Made by a program: the position numbers and the translations under genes. DNA of 64,000 nt from an uncultured Planctomycetaceae bacterium (GTDB lineage Bacteria; Planctomycetota; Planctomycetia; Planctomycetales; Planctomycetaceae): NCBI GenBank assembly GCA_963976765.1, contig CAXBME010000001.1, forward strand, positions 372,001 to 436,000. The letters run 5' to 3'. Shown here in pieces: positions 43,964 through 50,678 of this stretch (within the stretch, counting starts at the first letter, position 1; each line of letters starts with the position of its first letter). Below the pieces are notes generated by a model, which had not been told where the DNA came from, did not search any database, and worked only from the letters and a program-made list of their open reading frames with translations.

Positions 43964-44036
43964 GTCACAGAGATCACAGAGGCCACTGAGAAAATTTCTG
44001 TCAGAACAACTCGGTGGCCTCTGTGATCTCCGTGGC
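43964..44036. repeat. Palindromic intergenic element (CACAGAGATCACAGAG type)
   Basis: 27-bp arms GTCACAGAGATCACAGAGGCCACTGAG and CTCGGTGGCCTCTGTGATCTCCGTGGC with 3 non-Watson-Crick positions. Confidence 0.85.
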
Positions 44037-44068: not shown

Positions 44069-45514
44069 ATGTCCGCTTTCGAGCCAACAACTCAGACACT
44101 CCCGACGATCACCGGGCGACTGCGTGATTTCTCGGACGACCCGATAGCCTGCATGCGTCGAGTCCAGAGTGAAGCCGGGGATCTCGTTGCGTTGCAGGAA
44201 GGTGACCAGCAGCTTGTCTTTGCGTTCGGGGCCGGACTCAATCGACAGATCCTGAGCCGGGCAGACCGGTTTCATTCTCAATTCTTTGCCATTCGAGGCC
44301 CAAAGAATTCTGCTCAACGCCGTCTGACGTCCGGCCTGCTCAGCATGAATGGGAAAGAGCATTCACAGCAGCGGCGAACGATGAAGGCGGGTTTTGAAAA
44401 GCGGGCGATCCCAGGCTACTCCAGCATGATCGCCCATCATGCGCAGGAGATGCTCAACGACTGGCGGCCTGGCCAGACTCGCGATATTTCCTGCGAGATG
44501 ACCGGACTGATGCTGCGAATTTCCAGCTCAATGCTGTTTGGCATGGAAGAACCCGAACTGGCCTTTGAAATCGGTCGAATGATGGAACGCTGGGTGGAGC
44601 TGAATCAGGAACTGGGGATTGCGGCTCTGATCGCTACCGACGATTTTTATCCTCGCTATCAGCAGATGCTGACCTTTGCCGAGGAACTGGAAGGCCGCAT
44701 TCGAGAACTGATCAGCAGCCGCGCCGCCGACAGGTCAGCATCCGGCCACGACATCATCTCGATGCTTCTGCGTGCTCGGCAGGCCGGTGCTCCGATGACG
44801 GATTCGCAGCTCGTCGGTCAGACGGCGCTCGTGTTCGCCGCTTCGCAAATGACGACGGCCCACACGCTGACCTGGACGCTGTTTCTGCTCGCTCAACATC
44901 CGGAAGTCATGCGAGAACTGCTCGACGAAATCTCCGAAAATGCCGACGCCAGTTTTCGTATCGGCCCGCCGGACTCGGCCACCGGAATCATGCCGACCGG
45001 TTCAACGAGCGTGCTGGACCGGGTGATCCGCGAAAGCATGCGAGTCCTCCCGGCGTCGGCCTATTCGCAACGCGTCACCAACGGCTCGACCGAGTTGAAC
45101 GGTGCGCCACTGAAGCCGAACTCGCTGGTCATCTTCAGCCAGTTCATGACGCATCGCAACGAGCAGTTGTTTGAGTCAGCCAGCGAGTTCCGCCCTGGCC
45201 GCTGGAACACCATCCGCCCGACTGGTTACGAATACCTGCCGTTCGGAGGCGGAGCAAAACTGTGCCTGGGTGCGTCGCTGGCGATGTCGATTCTGAACAT
45301 CGTCCTGCCGATGACTCTTCGCAAAGCCGGCCTGCAGATTGTCCCGCACACGGAAGTGAACGGTCGAGTCATCTCGACCATGTTCTCTCCCGAGTTCCCC
45401 GTTCCCACAATCCTGCTGGCACCAGACACCATCGCCGATACCTCGCCCCTGACCGGCAACATCCACAACCTGGTCACCCTGCCAACCACCCGCGCAGACC
45501 GCGCCGCCGCCTGA
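44069..45514 (+). CDS. Cytochrome P450
   Basis: ExxR (ESMR), FRPGRW meander, heme motif PFGGGAKLCLG; I-helix AASQMTT. Confidence 0.93.
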   Translation: MSAFEPTTQTLPTITGRLRDFSDDPIACMRRVQSEAGDLVALQEGDQQLVFAFGAGLNRQILSRADRFHSQFFAIRGPKNSAQRRLTSGLLSMNGKEHSQQRRTMKAGFEKRAIPGYSSMIAHHAQEMLNDWRPGQTRDISCEMTGLMLRISSSMLFGMEEPELAFEIGRMMERWVELNQELGIAALIATDDFYPRYQQMLTFAEELEGRIRELISSRAADRSASGHDIISMLLRARQAGAPMTDSQLVGQTALVFAASQMTTAHTLTWTLFLLAQHPEVMRELLDEISENADASFRIGPPDSATGIMPTGSTSVLDRVIRESMRVLPASAYSQRVTNGSTELNGAPLKPNSLVIFSQFMTHRNEQLFESASEFRPGRWNTIRPTGYEYLPFGGGAKLCLGASLAMSILNIVLPMTLRKAGLQIVPHTEVNGRVISTMFSPEFPVPTILLAPDTIADTSPLTGNIHNLVTLPTTRADRAAA

Positions 45515-45529
45515 CGTCGACACCTCGAT

Positions 45530-45608
45530 GTGTGCCACTGGCTCTGCCAGTGTGGAATTATCGGTAGACGCCGAGTTCGGAAAGGTACTGGCAAAGCCAG
45601 TGGCAGAC
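45530..45608. repeat. REP-like element (CACTGGC-GCCAGTG family), copy 1
   Basis: GTGTGCCACTGGCTCTGCCAGTGT ... GTACTGGCAAAGCCAGTGGCAGAC. Confidence 0.8.
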
Positions 45609-45799
45609 CTTTTCGATTGAGAGTTGTAGAGACTCTTCACGGCCTGCCACTGATGGAAAACGACCGTCGTAAGCTCACTTGAGATGGGCGATCAGAAACG
45701 TGGCGGTGCGTGAGGTTGTTCGGTGGAAAATCGAGGCGGAGTCAGGGAACCTGTGTCGACACCCGTTCCGACGCACACCGTCTCCTCAGGATACCGCCC

Positions 45800-48700
45800 A
45801 TGCCGGCACCACAGTTTGAATCCAAAGAAGCCGAAGTCGCCTACCGGAAAGCCGAACAACGCATCGCCGAAGCGGCCCGCGAGAAGGAAGCTATTCTTGC
45901 TCTGAGTGGCCTCGGCCTGACGAGCGTTCCGCCGGAGATCGGCCAGCTCACCAGCCTCACCGTGCTGTACCTTCACGACAACCAACTGACTAGCGTTCCG
46001 CCGGAGATCGGCCAGCTTGTCAGCCTCGCCTCGCTGCGTCTTGACAGCAACAAGCTGACGAGCGTTCCGCCGGAGATCGGCCAGCTCACCAGCCTCACCA
46101 CGCTGCGCCTCGACCACAACCAGCTGACGTCACTGCCGCCGAAGATCGGTCAGCTTGCCAGCCTTACCATGCTGCACTTTCAGTACAACCAATTGACGAG
46201 CGTGCCGGCGGAGATTGGCCAGCTTGCCAGCCTCACCACGCTGTTCCTCGACAACAACCAGCTGACGAGCGTTCCGGCGGAGATCGGCCAGCTCACCAGC
46301 CTCACCACGCTGAGCCTTTACAACAACCAACTGACGAGCGTGCCGCCAGCGATCGGCCAGCTCGCCAGCCTCACCAAGTTGCACCTCGACGATAACCAAC
46401 TGACGAGCGTTCCGGCGGAGATCGGCCAGCTCACCAGCCTCACCACGCTGAGCCTTTACAACAACCAACTGACGAGCGTGCCGCCAGCGATCGGCCAGCT
46501 CACGAGTCTCACCGCACTGCGTCTTGACAGCAACAAGCTGACGAGCGTGCCGGTGGAGATTGGCCAGCTTGCCAGCGTCGCCATGCTGAGTCTCGACAAC
46601 AACCAACTGACGAGCGTGCCGCTGGAGATCGGCCAGCTCACCAGTCTCACCACGCTGTACCTCGACGATAACCAACTGCAAACGCTGCCCGAGGAACTGC
46701 GTCGGCTATCGAAGCTCAAGGTATTATTTCTCCACGGCAACCCGCGCCTGAAACTGCCGGCCTCCTTGCTGGGCGTCGAATATGGCGATTGGGACCGCAA
46801 AGTCGAGACAGCGCCCAAGGCGGGGCCGATTCTGGATTATTACTTCGGCACGGTCCTCGCCAATGAACGGCGACCGTTGAATGAAGCCAAGCTGATTCTG
46901 GTCGGACGAGGCGAAGCGGGAAAAACGTCGCTTGTGAAGCGGCTGGTTGAGAACAGGTTCTCGCGTCGGGAAGACACGACGCAGGGGATCCGCATTCAAC
47001 AGTGGCCGATCACCGTCGGGCGGAAGAAGGACGAAGTCCGACTGAATGTCTGGGACTTTGGCGGGCAGGAAATCATGCACGCCACGCATCAGTTCTTCCT
47101 GACCGACCGCAGTCTGTACCTGCTGGTGCTCGACGGTCGCGCCGGACAGCAGGAGGCCGAAGCCGATTACTGGCTGCGACTGATTTCCGGCTTCGCGCCC
47201 GAGTCGCCGGTGCTGGTCGTGCTGAACAAAATCAAAAAAGACCACTTCACGCTCAACCGAGACGCTTTGCGGCAGAAGTACCCGCAGATTCAGGATTTTA
47301 TCGAAACCGACTGCGACAACCCCGGCTCGAACAAGAAGCCCGGCCAGAACGGTCATGGCATCGACAAACTTCGCAAAGCCATTGCGAAACACGTCAACAA
47401 ACTGCCCGACGTGCGAATGGCATTTCCGAAGAGCTGGTTCGCCGTCAAGGAGAAACTGTCGAAAAGCCAGACGTCACGCCGAACGTCGGCATCGCGACAG
47501 AAGAACTTTCTGACGCTCGACGAGTTCCGCGACGAATGCGAAGAGCTCGGCGAAACTGATCCCGGTAAACAGGAAAGTCTGAGCGCCATTCTGCACCGCT
47601 TGGGGATCGCGCTGAATTTCAGCGACGACCGGCGGCTGAACGATCGCCACGTGCTGAATCCTCACTGGCTGACGACCGGCATCTACACGCTGCTGAATTC
47701 CAAGACGCTTGCTTCCCGCAAGGGAGAGCTGCGTCCGAAAGATCTCACCAAAGAACTCGACGTACGCCACTACCCCGCCGACATGCACCCGTTCCTGATC
47801 CACCTGATGGAGAAGTTCGAGCTGTGCTTTGGCTTCAACGATGCGTCGGAGACAGGGAAGAGTCGAAGGAAGTCAAAATCGAAAGGTGCTGAGCAACTGC
47901 TCGATCGATACCTCATTCCCGAACTGCTCGACCCCGAACAGCCTTCCGCCGCACGATCCTTCGACGAGCAGAAGTGCCTCAACTTCCAGTACGACTACCC
48001 GGTTTTGCCACCGGGCCTGCTGCCACGTTTCATCGTCCGAACTCACGTACTGAGCGAGACGCATCGCTGGAAGACGGGTGTAATTCTCTCGTTCGAGGGC
48101 AACACGGCTCTGGTCAAAGCGGACCCGCAGGAGCAAATCATCCGCGTCCTGATCAACGGCCCTGCCGCCGGACGCCCGCGCATGCTGGCCGTCATTCGCG
48201 AAGACTTCGACGTCATTCACCGCGACATCCCACACATGAAGCCGCAGGAACTGATCTCGTTCCCGGACCATCCTTCGATCACCGTGCCGTATCAGGAAAT
48301 TGAAGTGCTGTACGACGCCAGCCCCGAGACCCCGGTTGTTCGCGTCAAGGATGGCGAGGTCGTGTCTCACACCGCTGGTGAACTGCTGCTCGGTGTCGAG
48401 TTCGGCATGACGGCTGAAACCGGACGGCGGCGAGCTGTTCGCCCGGGTGTCCGAAAGTCCGATCGCCAGTCTCGACAACCGGATGCGTTCGTCGCTTTGT
48501 CGGGCGACCAACCGTTGCGGGTTTTCTACAGCTACTCACGGCTCGATGCCAAACAGCGGCTGAAGCTTGCCAAACACCTGTCCCCGCTGGAGCGGATTGG
48601 CCTGATTCACACCTGGCACGACAACGAGATTCTGCCGGGCGCCGAGTTCAACCCGGAAATTGCCGAAAAGCTGAATGAGTCCGACATCATCCTGCTGCTG

Positions 48701-48991
48701 ATCAGCCCGAACTTCACAGCGTCGGATTACTGCATGACCATCGAGCTGTCGCGCGCGATGCGGCGCCACCAGTCGGGAGCGGACAACGTCGCGGTGCTGC
48801 CGGTGATCGTCAGTCCGACGACCGGCTGGAAGAAGCAGAAAGCGGAAGGCGTGAAGCTCGGCGATCTGAACGCTCTTCCGGAGGCCGGCAAAGAGATTCC
48901 AAAGTGGAAACCGCAGGACAACGGCTGGGCAAACGTCGCCGCCGGAGTAGAACGCGCTGCGGAAGCCCTGCGGAAGAAACGTGGATTGTGA
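45800..48991 (+). CDS. Roco protein: LRR - Roc GTPase - COR - TIR
   Basis: 11+ LRRs; P-loop GRGEAGKTS, G2 TTQGI, G3 WDFGGQ, HATHQFFL; COR VLNPHWL...LMEKFELCF...YLIP; TIR VFYSYS...TWHD...LLISPNF...YCMTIEL. Confidence 0.93.
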   Translation: MPAPQFESKEAEVAYRKAEQRIAEAAREKEAILALSGLGLTSVPPEIGQLTSLTVLYLHDNQLTSVPPEIGQLVSLASLRLDSNKLTSVPPEIGQLTSLTTLRLDHNQLTSLPPKIGQLASLTMLHFQYNQLTSVPAEIGQLASLTTLFLDNNQLTSVPAEIGQLTSLTTLSLYNNQLTSVPPAIGQLASLTKLHLDDNQLTSVPAEIGQLTSLTTLSLYNNQLTSVPPAIGQLTSLTALRLDSNKLTSVPVEIGQLASVAMLSLDNNQLTSVPLEIGQLTSLTTLYLDDNQLQTLPEELRRLSKLKVLFLHGNPRLKLPASLLGVEYGDWDRKVETAPKAGPILDYYFGTVLANERRPLNEAKLILVGRGEAGKTSLVKRLVENRFSRREDTTQGIRIQQWPITVGRKKDEVRLNVWDFGGQEIMHATHQFFLTDRSLYLLVLDGRAGQQEAEADYWLRLISGFAPESPVLVVLNKIKKDHFTLNRDALRQKYPQIQDFIETDCDNPGSNKKPGQNGHGIDKLRKAIAKHVNKLPDVRMAFPKSWFAVKEKLSKSQTSRRTSASRQKNFLTLDEFRDECEELGETDPGKQESLSAILHRLGIALNFSDDRRLNDRHVLNPHWLTTGIYTLLNSKTLASRKGELRPKDLTKELDVRHYPADMHPFLIHLMEKFELCFGFNDASETGKSRRKSKSKGAEQLLDRYLIPELLDPEQPSAARSFDEQKCLNFQYDYPVLPPGLLPRFIVRTHVLSETHRWKTGVILSFEGNTALVKADPQEQIIRVLINGPAAGRPRMLAVIREDFDVIHRDIPHMKPQELISFPDHPSITVPYQEIEVLYDASPETPVVRVKDGEVVSHTAGELLLGVEFGMTAETGRRRAVRPGVRKSDRQSRQPDAFVALSGDQPLRVFYSYSRLDAKQRLKLAKHLSPLERIGLIHTWHDNEILPGAEFNPEIAEKLNESDIILLLISPNFTASDYCMTIELSRAMRRHQSGADNVAVLPVIVSPTTGWKKQKAEGVKLGDLNALPEAGKEIPKWKPQDNGWANVAAGVERAAEALRKKRGL
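45917..46705 (+). repeat. Tandem 69-bp LRR-coding repeat array (about 11.4 units)
   Basis: Unit consensus LxSLTxLxLxxNQLTSVPxEIGQ; unit starts at 45947 + 69n. Confidence 0.95.
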
Positions 48992-49013
48992 CCGCCAACT
49001 GTCGTAGTTGAAG

Positions 49014-49057
49014 TCGTGGGGCCGGTTCCCAACGACCGGTAGGAACCGGCCCTACGA
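49014..49057. repeat. GTAG-type REP hairpin between convergent genes
   Basis: TCGTGGGGCCGGTTCCC ... AGGAACCGGCCCTACGA. Confidence 0.75.
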
Positions 49058-49070
49058 TAATTGCTGGCGA

Positions 49071-50345
49071 TTACTTGCGGATGTCGTAGCAGAGCAGGGC
49101 GTTCTGGTCGCGGGCGTAGAGGAGTCCGTCGACGATGACGGGGTGTGGCCAGCTTTTGCCATTCTTCGTCGCGAGCTTGAACGAGCTTTTCAGGCGGTAC
49201 TCTTCCGGCGTTGCTTCGATCAGGGCCATCGTGCCGTCTTCGTAGCGAAAGTAGAGATGTCCGTCCGCCAGAAGAATTGCCGCTGAACCGCTGCCGGGAC
49301 CACGACCGCCGGACCAGACTTCTTTGCCGGTTGAAAAATTAATACACAACGGGAAACCGTTGTTGTGACCATGTCCGCAGTAGATGTGGTCGCCGTAGAC
49401 AATCATTCCACCGTGGTGGTTCTGCATGTCTTTGGCGTCGAGAAAGTACTTTTCTTCTGCCACCAGGCGATTGCCTTCTTTTCTGATCTGAAGGAGGGCG
49501 GCTCCAGTTCCGTAACCGGTTGAGCAGAAGACGAAGTCGCCTTTGACAAGCGGTGTGGGAATGTTAGCCGTGCCGTTGGCGATGCGGTTGTAAGACCAAA
49601 GCTGTTTGCCATTTTCTGCGTCAATCGAGATGACTCCGCGACCGGTCAACTGAACGTACTGTTTCACTCCAGCGGCGTGGCTGATCACGATTGATGAGTA
49701 TCCGGCTCCGTCTTTGCCTCGACCGCCGATGTCGTCCGGCATGGTTGACTTCCAGATTGTCTCGCCGGTCTTCTTGTTGAGTGCCACCACGACGGCGTCT
49801 TTCGCGCCGGGTGTGCAGACCAGTCGGTCGCCATCGAGCAGAGGCGATTCACTGTAGCCCCAGCCGGACATCATGCTTCCACCGAAGTCCTTCGGGAAAT
49901 CTTTCTGCCAGGCAATTTTCCCGGTCACGACATCAGCGGCGACCAGGTGTCCGTCCCGCCCCAGTGCATAAACCAGCCCGCCGTCGACAGTCGGCGTGCA
50001 GTTGGGATTCCCACCTTTGGTGGGAGTCGCCCATAACTCATGCCCACCATCAAGTTCGAGAGCGATCAGTTCGCAGCCATTCTTACGGCTGCCCATCGTG
50101 AAGATGCGACCGTCTGAAATAGCGATTGATGAGTAGCCACGTCCGATGCCATCAATCTGCCACTTGAGTTTCGGGCCGTCGTCTGCCCATTCAGGCTGAA
50201 GTCCGGTTTCGTCCACAGCAATGCCGTCGCGATGTGGGCCCCGCCAGGACGGCCAGTCATTGGCCGATGCCGTTTGCAATTGCTGAGCGAATATGAGCAA
50301 CCCAATACCGAAGAGCATTAATGAGCGGAATTCTGCCTGGAGCAT
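49071..50345 (-). CDS. PQQ-binding-like beta-propeller protein
   Basis: Signal peptide, NDWPSWRGP, GYSESP, WPHPVIVDGLLYAR. Confidence 0.88.
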   Translation of the reverse strand: MLQAEFRSLMLFGIGLLIFAQQLQTASANDWPSWRGPHRDGIAVDETGLQPEWADDGPKLKWQIDGIGRGYSSIAISDGRIFTMGSRKNGCELIALELDGGHELWATPTKGGNPNCTPTVDGGLVYALGRDGHLVAADVVTGKIAWQKDFPKDFGGSMMSGWGYSESPLLDGDRLVCTPGAKDAVVVALNKKTGETIWKSTMPDDIGGRGKDGAGYSSIVISHAAGVKQYVQLTGRGVISIDAENGKQLWSYNRIANGTANIPTPLVKGDFVFCSTGYGTGAALLQIRKEGNRLVAEEKYFLDAKDMQNHHGGMIVYGDHIYCGHGHNNGFPLCINFSTGKEVWSGGRGPGSGSAAILLADGHLYFRYEDGTMALIEATPEEYRLKSSFKLATKNGKSWPHPVIVDGLLYARDQNALLCYDIRK

Positions 50346-50678
50346 TGGTTCGAAACCTGTGGTCAAGAGGCGGGAAGAACTGCCGAATCCGGCAGCAGGG
50401 AATGTGGGAGCAAAGTGAAAGAAGTCGATCGAACTGCCGAAGAGTCGACTGATCGCGCGCGGCCTGAATATAGTCTGACTCGCCGTCGCCAACAATTCGT
50501 ATCGAGTCCGTCGTTGCCGCCGGTTTGTGCAGGGCAGGTTCTGCCGGACGAACTTCAACGTGTGCAATGCCGATATTCAGTACCGAACTCCGTCAGGCAG
50601 AACCTGACCTGTGACAACTCAATCAATTCTGAGAACCCCTTCGCCGCCATCATTCAGATTCACCAGAGGTCGCCGAAC

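Follow-up and report, generated by a model that had tools for sequence, protein, structure and literature searches.

Receptors that combine sensor, switch and effector in one chain are known among the Avs and bNACHT STAND proteins of bacteria and the plant TIR-NLRs RPP1, Roq1, L6 and RUN1. STAND proteins oligomerise when ATP-loaded, whereas the Chlorobium Roco protein (CtRoco) monomerises when GTP-loaded. According to the available text of PMC5714945, CtRoco is monomeric with GTP bound and dimeric when nucleotide-free or GDP-loaded, and the monomer-dimer cycle is also treated in PMC11052575, again as far as its available text goes. Roco proteins bind nucleotides with micromolar affinity and exchange them fast (PMC6337361). 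Bacterial members of the family serve as the chief structural models of LRRK2, and no paper showing their cellular function was found in the literature searched.

A role in immunity has been predicted computationally. Kaur, Iyer, Burroughs and Aravind (Kaur 2021, eLife; PMC8195603, Fig. 6D) described "AP-GTPase counter-invader systems"; in the accessible parts of the article and its supplement, "LRR+AP-GTPase+COR+TIR" is listed 368 times, at least 24 variable C-terminal effectors are recognised, TIR, caspase-like and EAD domains among them, the LRRs are described as evolving rapidly, examples from Planctomycetaceae are given, and some organisms are said to carry, in a single genome, several paralogues that differ in their effectors. 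The literature searched, two TIR surveys included and subscription journals mostly outside its scope, held no experimental test of a Roco protein in defence, in agreement with the preliminary description of the present locus, which knew of no demonstrated defence role for this architecture.

Gene and domain architecture

The window analysed is a stretch of 64,000 nucleotides from contig CAXBME010000001.1 of an uncultured Planctomycetaceae bacterium. It contains the following gene and gene segments.

45800..48991, + strand: LRR-Roc-COR-TIR gene, 1063 aa (ORF listing, Pfam)
45917..46744, + strand: 12 LRR units of 23 aa (69 bp) each (Pfam, AF2 model, repeat alignment)
46889..47410, + strand: Roc nucleotide-binding domain (Pfam, alignments, AF2 model)
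47225..47236, + strand: G4 motif NKIK; Lys479 replaces the guanine-reading Asp (NKID in CtRoco and MbRoco2)
47306..47314, + strand: G5 motif TDC; Asp504 replaces Ser (ISC in CtRoco and MbRoco2); clade marker
47426..48316, + strand: COR dimerisation module, COR-A at 47426-47929 and COR-B at 47972-48316 (Pfam, alignment, Foldseek)
48410..48502, + strand: basic disordered linker from COR to TIR, residues 871-901 (AF2, pLDDT <50)
48512..48982, + strand: TIR domain with Glu982 (48743-48745) at the catalytic position (Pfam, alignments, fold search)

The ORF has zero internal stops and begins with an ATG at 45800, just 3' of an AGGA; a start at the in-frame GTG at 45710 would instead lengthen the protein by 30 aa. 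No promoter or terminator was found in a scan of the upstream DNA. An identical protein is present in a public collection. Every Pfam domain scored above its cut-off, namely the LRRs, Roc (residues 364-478, E 1e-29), COR-A (543-710, 6e-36), COR-B (725-839, 1e-24) and TIR_2 (908-1007, 2e-12; residue 908 corresponds to position 48521). The AF2 model displayed four folded regions with a mean pLDDT of 85.8, and a disordered linker at residues 871-901. The HMM check thus placed Roc, COR and TIR_2 all above cut-off, and Pfam and the model confirmed the earlier view that a single ORF joins LRR, Roc, COR and TIR. The N-terminus is a charged helix with no signal peptide visible by eye, as had also been noted before.

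The Roc-COR tandem makes this a Roco protein. CtRoco was the top Foldseek match (E 1e-37), and the best matches, CtRoco (6HLU, 3DPU, 8R4B) and Methanosarcina barkeri Roco2 (MbRoco2; 4WNR), share the LRR-Roc-COR order and fold; the match of full-length CtRoco stops at residue 835, without the TIR. Matches in the ESM Atlas were to Roc clusters only. No NB-ARC or NACHT STAND ATPase was matched by Pfam at E 0.1, and the fold is that of Roc-COR. The one-chain logic is therefore shared with the STAND and NLR receptors, and the plant TIRs have a catalytic Glu homologous to Glu982, whereas the switch here is a Ras-like Roc-COR instead of a STAND ATPase and the order is opposite, with the sensor N-terminal and the effector C-terminal.

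With its N-terminal LRRs, AP-GTPase (Roc) and COR in one chain, followed by an effector slot that varies among homologues, the protein has the domain order of the class of Kaur 2021 (PMC8195603), for which the accessible text proposes the same role. The sensor-switch-effector reading offered by the preliminary description is accordingly not new, and the architecture alone is not news. What appears to be newly noted here, from sequence comparison, is a clade of Roc domains with altered G4 and G5 motifs.

A Roc clade with altered G4 and G5 motifs

The motifs GRGEAGKTS and WDFGGQ, on which an intact Roc had been proposed, were both found. The landmarks are the P-loop (46904-46930), Thr394 of switch I, G3 (47051-47068) and Arg447 (47138-47140), so that G1, G2, G3 and the conserved Arg after beta-4 are all present and align with those of CtRoco and MbRoco2. 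Arg447 is invariant in 53 of 53 rows of the alignment and aligns to an Arg of CtRoco, which we take to be the catalytic R543. The claim of an intact Roc holds for these elements and fails at G4 and G5, which read NKIK and TDC here against NKID and ISC in CtRoco and MbRoco2.

Neither the G4 Asp of NKxD nor the G5 Ser of a canonical guanine-specific Roc is found, and this applies to the whole clade. All 121 rows of the close-homologue alignment have the G5 Asp. The G4 Asp is retained in 9 of 122 proteins with a G5 Asp, as compared to 102 of 106 with a G5 Ser (L106, a misaligned row, was left out of the tally). The G4 Lys is kept in 97% of the clade, and Asp dominates its G5 position. Defined by a quick tree and by FastTree without the motif columns, the G5-Asp clade takes in roughly half of the 232 homologues in the analysis and spans multiple phyla.

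Since the guanine-specifying Asp is lost throughout the clade, the statement that the switch is a GTPase rather than an ATPase is unsafe for this protein. The most likely outcome is nevertheless that the G5 Asp has taken over guanine reading and that the protein is still a GTPase. A preference for ATP, or dual use of GTP and ATP, is a smaller though substantial possibility, and an outright loss of nucleotide switching seems improbable. More broadly, and with considerable doubt, a multi-phylum clade in which the G4 Asp disappeared and G5 acquired an Asp may thereby have changed the nucleotide of its Ras-like switch, with ATP replacing GTP or both being used; this would amount to a second origin, on an unrelated fold, of an NLR-like ATP-gated sensor-NADase. 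SpoIVA, a TRAFAC GTPase turned ATPase (PMC7952092), resembles the clade in that its G4 Asp is replaced by K, R, N or H under weak constraint and its G5 Ser position is often Asp followed by Cys. It differs in that the G4 Lys is also lost and the G5 position is variable, and as an unrelated protein it serves as a precedent only. One review remarks that Roc G4-G5 "show some variations". In the literature searched, subscription journals being mostly outside its scope, the clade is not mentioned, and neither it nor the G4/G5 change appears in the accessible parts of Kaur 2021 (PMC8195603).

LRR array

The LRRs are very regular. Variation among units 1-11 falls mostly at the four strand positions of xLxxLxLxxN and at two positions on the convex side, and units 6 and 8 are identical in 69 of 69 bases. 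The number of LRRs differs among 19 close homologues (3-11 by regex count), and a form with 10 LRRs exists (P0002). Identity among close homologues was 41-72% in the LRRs versus 54-68% in the TIR, so that divergence in the LRRs does not exceed that in the TIR. As a sign of variable copy number within the population, a contig of run X1 skips 138 bases, but this skip falls within a 102-base exact repeat and may be an assembly collapse. A 624-base skip in run X3 rests on 35 letters, and neither skip is counted as evidence.

TIR domain

The preliminary description placed the Glu of YCMTIEL at the catalytic position, and this is borne out: Glu982 (GAG, 48743-48745) falls in the same alignment column as the WC-x-EL Glu of Cat1, L6, RUN1 and RPP1. 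Its column is Glu in 118 of 121 rows of the close-homologue alignment and is one of two invariant columns among 28 diverse Roco TIRs. Fold and catalytic Glu are thus those of an enzymatic TIR, a predicted NADase, shared with Thoeris ThsB, Cat1, TIR-SAVED and the TIR-APAZ NADases. The fold searches confirmed the TIR fold and did not discriminate between NADase and signalling TIRs.

Compared with the nearest orthologue, dS reaches 1.09 in the TIR, whereas the other parts of the gene give 0.26-0.55 and the flanking genes 0.42-0.51, and four-fold sites differ at 27 of 53 positions in the TIR versus 41 of 185 elsewhere (Fisher p 1e-4). The elevated divergence recurs in contig 20 of run X3. Apparently, the TIR has been exchanged. 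The dN/dS ratio is 0.11-0.22 everywhere along the gene.

Insertion site and distribution

The gene lies between a P450 and a PQQ-like propeller gene, and its neighbours in the window are metabolic genes. The P450/PQQ-like interval lacks the Roco gene in G001 and G005, where it is empty, and in G003, where it holds an M14 peptidase; in G004 a kinase-TPR gene adjoins the PQQ-like gene and no Roco gene is present at the site. G002 carries a decayed copy with deletions in the LRRs and Roc and a stop before the TIR. Across five congeners, the gene is therefore absent from the site in four and decayed in the fifth. Another genome, G006, has a Roco-TIR gene with an in-frame TAG, making two broken genes in the same genus. 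COR-A was found in 4 of 8 genomes of the genus and COR-B in 11 of 301 genomes of the phylum. Thus, the survey revealed the patchy presence that had been anticipated, and the vertical syntenic conservation of a housekeeping gene, named as evidence to the contrary, was not seen, with an intact copy at the site in 0 of 5 congeners. At 0.759, the GC3 of the gene is matched or exceeded by 0.8% of the genome's 2327 long ORFs, whose median is 0.64. From these sequence data, the gene is judged to be horizontally acquired. A single distant relative (28%) was found on viral contigs.

The genome has one COR-A match (G000) and hence a single LRR-Roc-COR gene, which differs from the multi-paralogue genomes in the accessible text of Kaur 2021 (PMC8195603). 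Besides it, there are two WD40-Roc-like genes, whose tails are TIR or DUF4365.

A palindromic element had been noted on each side of the gene, and both inverted repeats exist.

45530..45608, no strand: dispersed palindromic repeat, 53 loci in the genome; not part of the system
49014..49057, no strand: palindromic repeat associated with the PQQ-like neighbour (3' end); outside the system

They are unrelated genomic repeats (best mutual match 6 nt) and carry no weight. The right one occurs without the Roco gene as well, in G004 and at the empty site of G001, and both were rejected as ends of a mobile element, matching ends that move with the gene not being found.

Effectors and neighbours of homologues

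Among the tails of 77 homologues, 40 were TIR, four EAD1/7, two MCU, one PNP and 30 unassigned, counts that are skewed to TIR because the whole protein was used in the locus search. Twenty-nine hand-picked representatives included four CHAT, three PNP, one cyclase, one OmpA and one TIR+AAA tail. Near-identical Nostoc Roc-CORs end in TIR or non-TIR tails. The proposed survey for swapped C-terminal effectors thus had a positive outcome, with TIR, EAD, MCU, PNP and CHAT all in the effector slot.

The 528 neighbours of 39 TIR loci included no recurrent partner gene, as would suit a self-contained effector; clusters present at more than three loci were generic kinase/TPR and response-regulator proteins only. 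PADLOC at E 1e-8 matched 7 of the 121 nearest neighbours (with crude ORF calls, sequences truncated to 400 aa and no control set), of which three are generic (two ATPases and one desaturase) and none is a validated partner. The earlier remark that the gene sits among unrelated genes agrees with the metabolic neighbours and the lack of a shared partner at homologous loci. No Thoeris, CRISPR, CBASS or Argonaute partner adjoins the gene or recurs beside homologues, and no ThsA-type effector is encoded with the TIR gene. Genome-wide searches for STALD and ThsA_Macro were blank, as were their positive controls, which makes these blanks uninformative about an effector elsewhere in the genome. A defence-island setting is not supported for the gene or its homologues, and genomic context provides no independent support for defence.

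Proposed mechanism and alternatives

We lean towards the view that the gene was acquired horizontally and encodes a stand-alone cytoplasmic conflict receptor in the predicted AP-GTPase (Roco) counter-invader class, whose TIR would destroy NAD+ and stop or kill the cell. Patchy presence, effector swaps, LRR turnover and the conserved TIR Glu favour the sensor-switch-effector reading of the preliminary description, whereas its GTPase switch is unsafe and its NLR-like polarity doubtful. Against the receptor view count the neighbours, which are not defence genes, the regular LRRs, which diverge no more than the TIR, the resemblance of the TIR to ThsB and plant signalling TIRs, and the two broken Roco-TIR genes of the genus. 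An NLR-like switch, oligomeric when NTP-loaded, does not carry over directly. Because the model Roco monomerises on GTP, the equation of the GTP-bound "on" state with an oligomer is probably reversed for Roco proteins. By analogy with Chlorobium Roco, the NTP form would be an open monomer and the nucleotide-free or NDP form a closed dimer. In a growing cell, the NTP-loaded monomer with an idle TIR would be the resting state, since TIR NADases need self-association and Roco proteins exchange nucleotides fast without a GEF. Binding of a ligand to the LRRs, probably an invader protein, or falling NTP could then drive formation of a COR dimer or higher oligomer, and the 30-residue flexible linker would permit TIR pairing and NAD+ cleavage. 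On balance, we prefer the dimer as the active state over TIRs released from a restraining dimer.

The same receptor could instead make a nucleotide signal with its TIR, as in Thoeris or plants, for a separate effector elsewhere. We consider this unlikely, although it has a basis: in PADLOC the TIR is matched best by a Thoeris ThsB1 model (E 8e-40, residues 908-1060), weak ThsB_TIR matches occur in several homologous tails, plant TIRs head the Foldseek list, the closest solved relatives include plant signalling TIRs, and the genome has eight further TIR_2 matches. However, the 39 TIR loci share no common neighbour, a small candidate partner 3' of the gene was seen at one locus only (L043, PDC-M50A), the TIR is interchangeable with direct effectors such as PNP and CHAT, and ThsB structures score Z 10-12, below the Z 13-15.5 of other TIRs. 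A stress or nucleotide-pool sensor that leads to programmed death or dormancy, or some other signalling function in large-genome aggregating bacteria, would suit a gene that is solitary among housekeeping genes, and its oligomer state could track NTP pools without a ligand, since Roco affinity is micromolar and exchange is fast (PMC6337361). Rapid gain, loss and decay, the foreign GC3, LRR-number turnover and effector swaps are, however, typical of conflict systems, and presence in 11 of 301 genomes is too rare for a core programme, so that we give such a sensor a low probability.

Two further explanations are very improbable. The NCBIfam matches to the LRR type III effectors XopAC, XopL and SspH2 could hint at an exported toxin against eukaryotic grazers or rival bacteria, but they score far under cut-off and involve the LRRs alone. 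Nor is a signal peptide visible, secretion and immunity genes neither adjoin the gene nor recur near homologues, and EAD adaptors in the effector slot point to intracellular systems. Likewise, the missing canonical G4 Asp and a nearest orthologue that is a pseudogene would fit a decaying relic with a dead nucleotide switch, yet G1-G3, Arg447 and Glu982 are intact, the low dN/dS extends along the gene, and the G4/G5 change is common to an intact clade across many phyla.

A predicted NADase tail gives a Roco protein a measurable output, so that a Roco-TIR can be used to test both the immune prediction and the active nucleotide and oligomer state. If a conversion from GTP to ATP proves true, the TIR would become the first direct readout of whether the monomer or the dimer of a Roco protein is the "on" state. 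The G4/G5 change itself poses a sharp and cheap GTP-versus-ATP question for about half of the 232 homologues.

Domain architecture and relation to predicted counter-invader systems

The LRR-Roc-COR-TIR (Roco) gene is open throughout its 1,063 residues. The joining of LRRs, Roc, COR and a C-terminal TIR in one ORF, proposed in the preliminary description, was borne out by Pfam and by an AF2 model (mean pLDDT 85.8; 53-row alignment).

Features of the Roco gene and its protein (domains from Pfam, all over cut-off)
Window 45800..48991, + strand: LRR-Roc-COR-TIR ORF
N-terminal to Roc: LRRs
Residues 364-478: Roc
Residues 543-710: COR-A
Residues 725-839: COR-B
Residues 908-1007: TIR_2

The model displays a capped LRR solenoid followed by Roc and COR, then a disordered linker (residues 871-901) and the TIR; its top Foldseek match is the Chlorobium Roco (CtRoco). 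Twelve 69-bp units make up the LRR array, the sixth and eighth being identical. The closest named relatives are from Planctomycetota. Glu982 (48743-48745), the Glu expected at the TIR catalytic position, aligns with the catalytic-position Glu of Cat1, L6, RUN1 and RPP1, and the residue is conserved as Glu in 118 of the 121 closest-homologue rows. Entry 7S2Z is titled as an E100A mutant of RUN1 with NAD bound.

The protein belongs to the AP-GTPase class described by Kaur et al. (2021; PMC8195603), in which LRR, AP-GTPase and COR are combined with at least 24 C-terminal effectors, including TIR, in predicted counter-invader systems. In their Figure 6 source data, 'AP-GTPase+COR+TIR' appears 368 times (occurrences of the string, not proteins), Planctomycetaceae entries included. 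The switch idea is restated in Kaur 2020 and a 2026 preprint, and an immune-receptor role is proposed for the ROCOs of brown algae (PMC11378527). The candidate immune-receptor reading is thus plausible but not novel, having been printed as a prediction by Kaur et al. Literature searches and word searches within two TIR surveys, with bioRxiv supplements and most subscription journals outside their coverage, found neither an experimental test of such a receptor, in agreement with the earlier statement that no demonstrated defence role was known, nor an account of the G4/G5 clade described below. New here are the rebuilt base pocket of that clade, evidence that one locus has exchanged its TIR, and an argument on the likely polarity of the switch. 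Most likely, the protein works like an NLR without being one.

Genomic site and probable replacement of the TIR domain

The site was compared in five of the seven congeners (G001-G005). The interval adjoining the PQQ-like gene at its 3' end (window 45514-49071; loci L021-L025) was variable: the P450 and PQQ-like genes have nothing in between in G001 and G005, an M14 peptidase gene lies between them in G003, and a kinase-TPR gene adjoins the PQQ-like gene in G004, with no P450 match in that stretch. Most LRRs and parts of Roc are missing from the orthologue in G002 (59% complete), whose reading frame meets a stop codon ahead of the TIR. G006 and G007 carry other, distant Roco genes (33-45% identity). 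COR-A is present in four of the eight genomes of the genus, in line with the patchiness suggested as a check, and COR-B in 11 of the 301 phylum genomes that are at least 90% complete. The GC3 of the gene, 0.759, is reached by 0.8% of 2,327 long ORFs in the genome. From the empty or variable site, the distribution of COR-A and COR-B and the high GC3, we conclude that this is an accessory gene, probably of foreign origin.

A palindrome does lie on each side of the gene, as first described, but not as an element boundary. The left one (window 45530-45608) occurs at 53 loci in the source genome; the right one (49014-49057) has few close copies there and recurs among congeners. Element ends were rejected because the two have at most 6 bases in common and the right one stands at the matching position in G001 and G004, both without the Roco gene. 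Two further palindromic repeat families are found at window 43966-44034 (11 loci in the genome) and 50530-50611 (10 loci).

The Roc-COR divergence from G002 (dS 0.26-0.47) is close to that of the flanking genes (0.42-0.51), and Roc-COR was therefore already at the locus in the common ancestor. The TIR showed a dS of 1.09 (dN/dS 0.22), and the four-fold sites gave 27/53 for the TIR versus 41/185 for the rest of the gene (p 1e-4; TIR versus flanks, p 0.003). A contig from sequencing run X3 matched at about 91% over Roc-COR, fell below the 85% threshold across most of the TIR and then returned to the same flank. The simplest reading is that the TIR allele was replaced through recombination.

A Roc clade with altered G4 and G5 motifs

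The Roc GTPase had been called intact, which holds for G1-G3 and the Arg after beta-4 but not for G4 and G5: these are NKIK (Lys479) and TDC (Asp504), in contrast to NKID and ISC in both CtRoco and Methanosarcina barkeri Roco2. We counted 232 Roc-CORs (151 proteins and 81 ORFs from loci, redundancy retained). With Ser in G5, the G4 Asp was present in 102 of 106 and replaced by Glu in 4; with Asp in G5, it was present in 9 of 122, and 15 residue types were seen at that position (one of the 122, L106, is misaligned). Other G5 residues occurred in 4. The entropy at the G4 Asp position was 3.2 bits in the G5-Asp set versus 0.23 bits in the G5-Ser set; conservation is maintained at the Asn and Lys of G4. 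P-loop position 2 also differs (Arg or aromatic in the G5-Asp clade versus Gln).

When 140 representatives were analysed by FastTree with the motif columns removed, the G5-Asp/Glu group fell on one side of a branch (support 100), with 50 G4 changes among its 73 rows versus 2 among 67. A quick tree of 79 rows recovered the same group (support 99), spanning Planctomycetota, Acidobacteriota, Cyanobacteriota, Bacteroidota, Verrucomicrobiota, Nitrospirota, Pseudomonadota, Thermodesulfobacteriota and Bacillota. Given this one origin, the G4/G5 covariation is a single event; the repeated observation is the release of the G4 position.

Two readings of the altered pocket may be considered. In Ras, the G5 Ser adjoins and bonds the G4 Asp, and the G5 Asp could thus read guanine N1/N2 in its place, which the kept G4 Lys and the fixed new Asp fit. 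Consistent with this, NKxD is missing from 43% of solved guanine complexes, and a different Asp or Glu often takes its role (PMC11594714). Alternatively, the switch may have shifted to ATP, as in SpoIVA, where the same pattern, a G4 Asp relaxed to K/H/N/R and a G5 that is often Asp then Cys, accompanies such a shift (PMC7952092).

Effector exchange among homologues

The Roc-COR search gave 5,943 matches among 8,000 candidates scored, and 3,407 clusters at E 1e-30. TIR_2 was found in 118 of the best 120 listed proteins. The anticipated swapping of C-terminal effectors was observed. The 77 tails cut from 80 loci, a sample biased to TIR-bearing genes by the search, comprised TIR (40), EAD1/7 (4), MCU (2), PNP (1) and no match over cut-off (30). 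The tails of 29 representatives, hand-picked out of 150 for long or unexplained tails, included CHAT (4), PNP (3), cyclase (1), OmpA (1), TIR with AAA ATPase (1) and TIR (6). Nostoc Roc-CORs at branch separations of 0.005-0.11 carried either TIR or non-TIR tails.

The gene is solitary among unrelated genes, as previously noted: the 528 genes neighbouring 39 TIR loci included no recurrent partner, so guilt by association is also unavailable. PADLOC matches occurred in 7 of 121 nearest neighbours, a count with no control set alongside.

Proposed switch and output

TIR NADases work as assemblies. CtRoco is mostly dimeric when nucleotide-free or GDP-bound, and monomeric when GTP-bound (PMC5714945). 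The GTP-bound form shows an LRR that has swung outward and a loss of structure at the end of COR-B that mediates dimerisation (PMC11052575). Roco nucleotide affinities are micromolar and exchange is fast (PMC6337361). On the CtRoco data and the assembly of TIR NADases, the likeliest cycle would run from an inactive monomer loaded with NTP to a dimeric or oligomeric active state, with an LRR ligand or NTP loss driving the transition. The opposite polarity is only slightly less likely. As to output, a PADLOC ThsB match would suit a TIR that makes a signal; we favour direct NAD+ depletion, since the gene has no neighbouring partner and the TIR is exchanged with PNP and caspase-like domains.

Related genes and unusual homologues

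Elsewhere in the source genome, a WD40-Roc-like-TIR gene (L114:2652-5873, contig C16; 1,073 aa) repeats the sensor-switch-effector layout, a beta-propeller taking the place of the LRRs, and has no Pfam COR match. Contig C1 (~239-249 kb; L115:3471-12626) holds a small defence-like cluster: a WD40-Roc-like-DUF4365 gene, a further Roc-like-DUF4365 ORF that is partial, may be frameshifted and has a TIR_2 match near C1:248744-249025, and a Shedu SduA_C gene.

In congener G006, one LRR-Roc-COR (L116:1276-5205) has an AAA_15/AAA_21 ATPase tail, and a Roco-TIR gene (L026, contig C678) has a single in-frame TAG between Roc and COR, its Roc having both Asps (NKWD, LDC). Protein P0124 combines TIR with an AAA_15/AAA_21-type ATPase, and the Roc-COR-PNP protein P0168 has an N-terminal TIR and AAA/NACHT-like ATPase in place of LRRs. 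A distant LRR-Roc-COR-TIR (L106, 28%) lies close to the end of a viral contig of 69 kb and may be host DNA. In Acaryochloris, a PADLOC PDC-M50A candidate gene (L043:12761-13216) comes after the Roco-TIR gene in the same orientation. Some 30 tails in L064-L105, many of them cyanobacterial, are 60-200 aa long with no Pfam match and represent unnamed candidate effectors. Finally, two Pyrinomonadaceae Roc-COR proteins have a C-terminal match to Pfam MCU, mitochondrial calcium uniporter (L066:7843-8364, E 8e-19; L068:11924-12484, E 6e-12), a possible channel effector.
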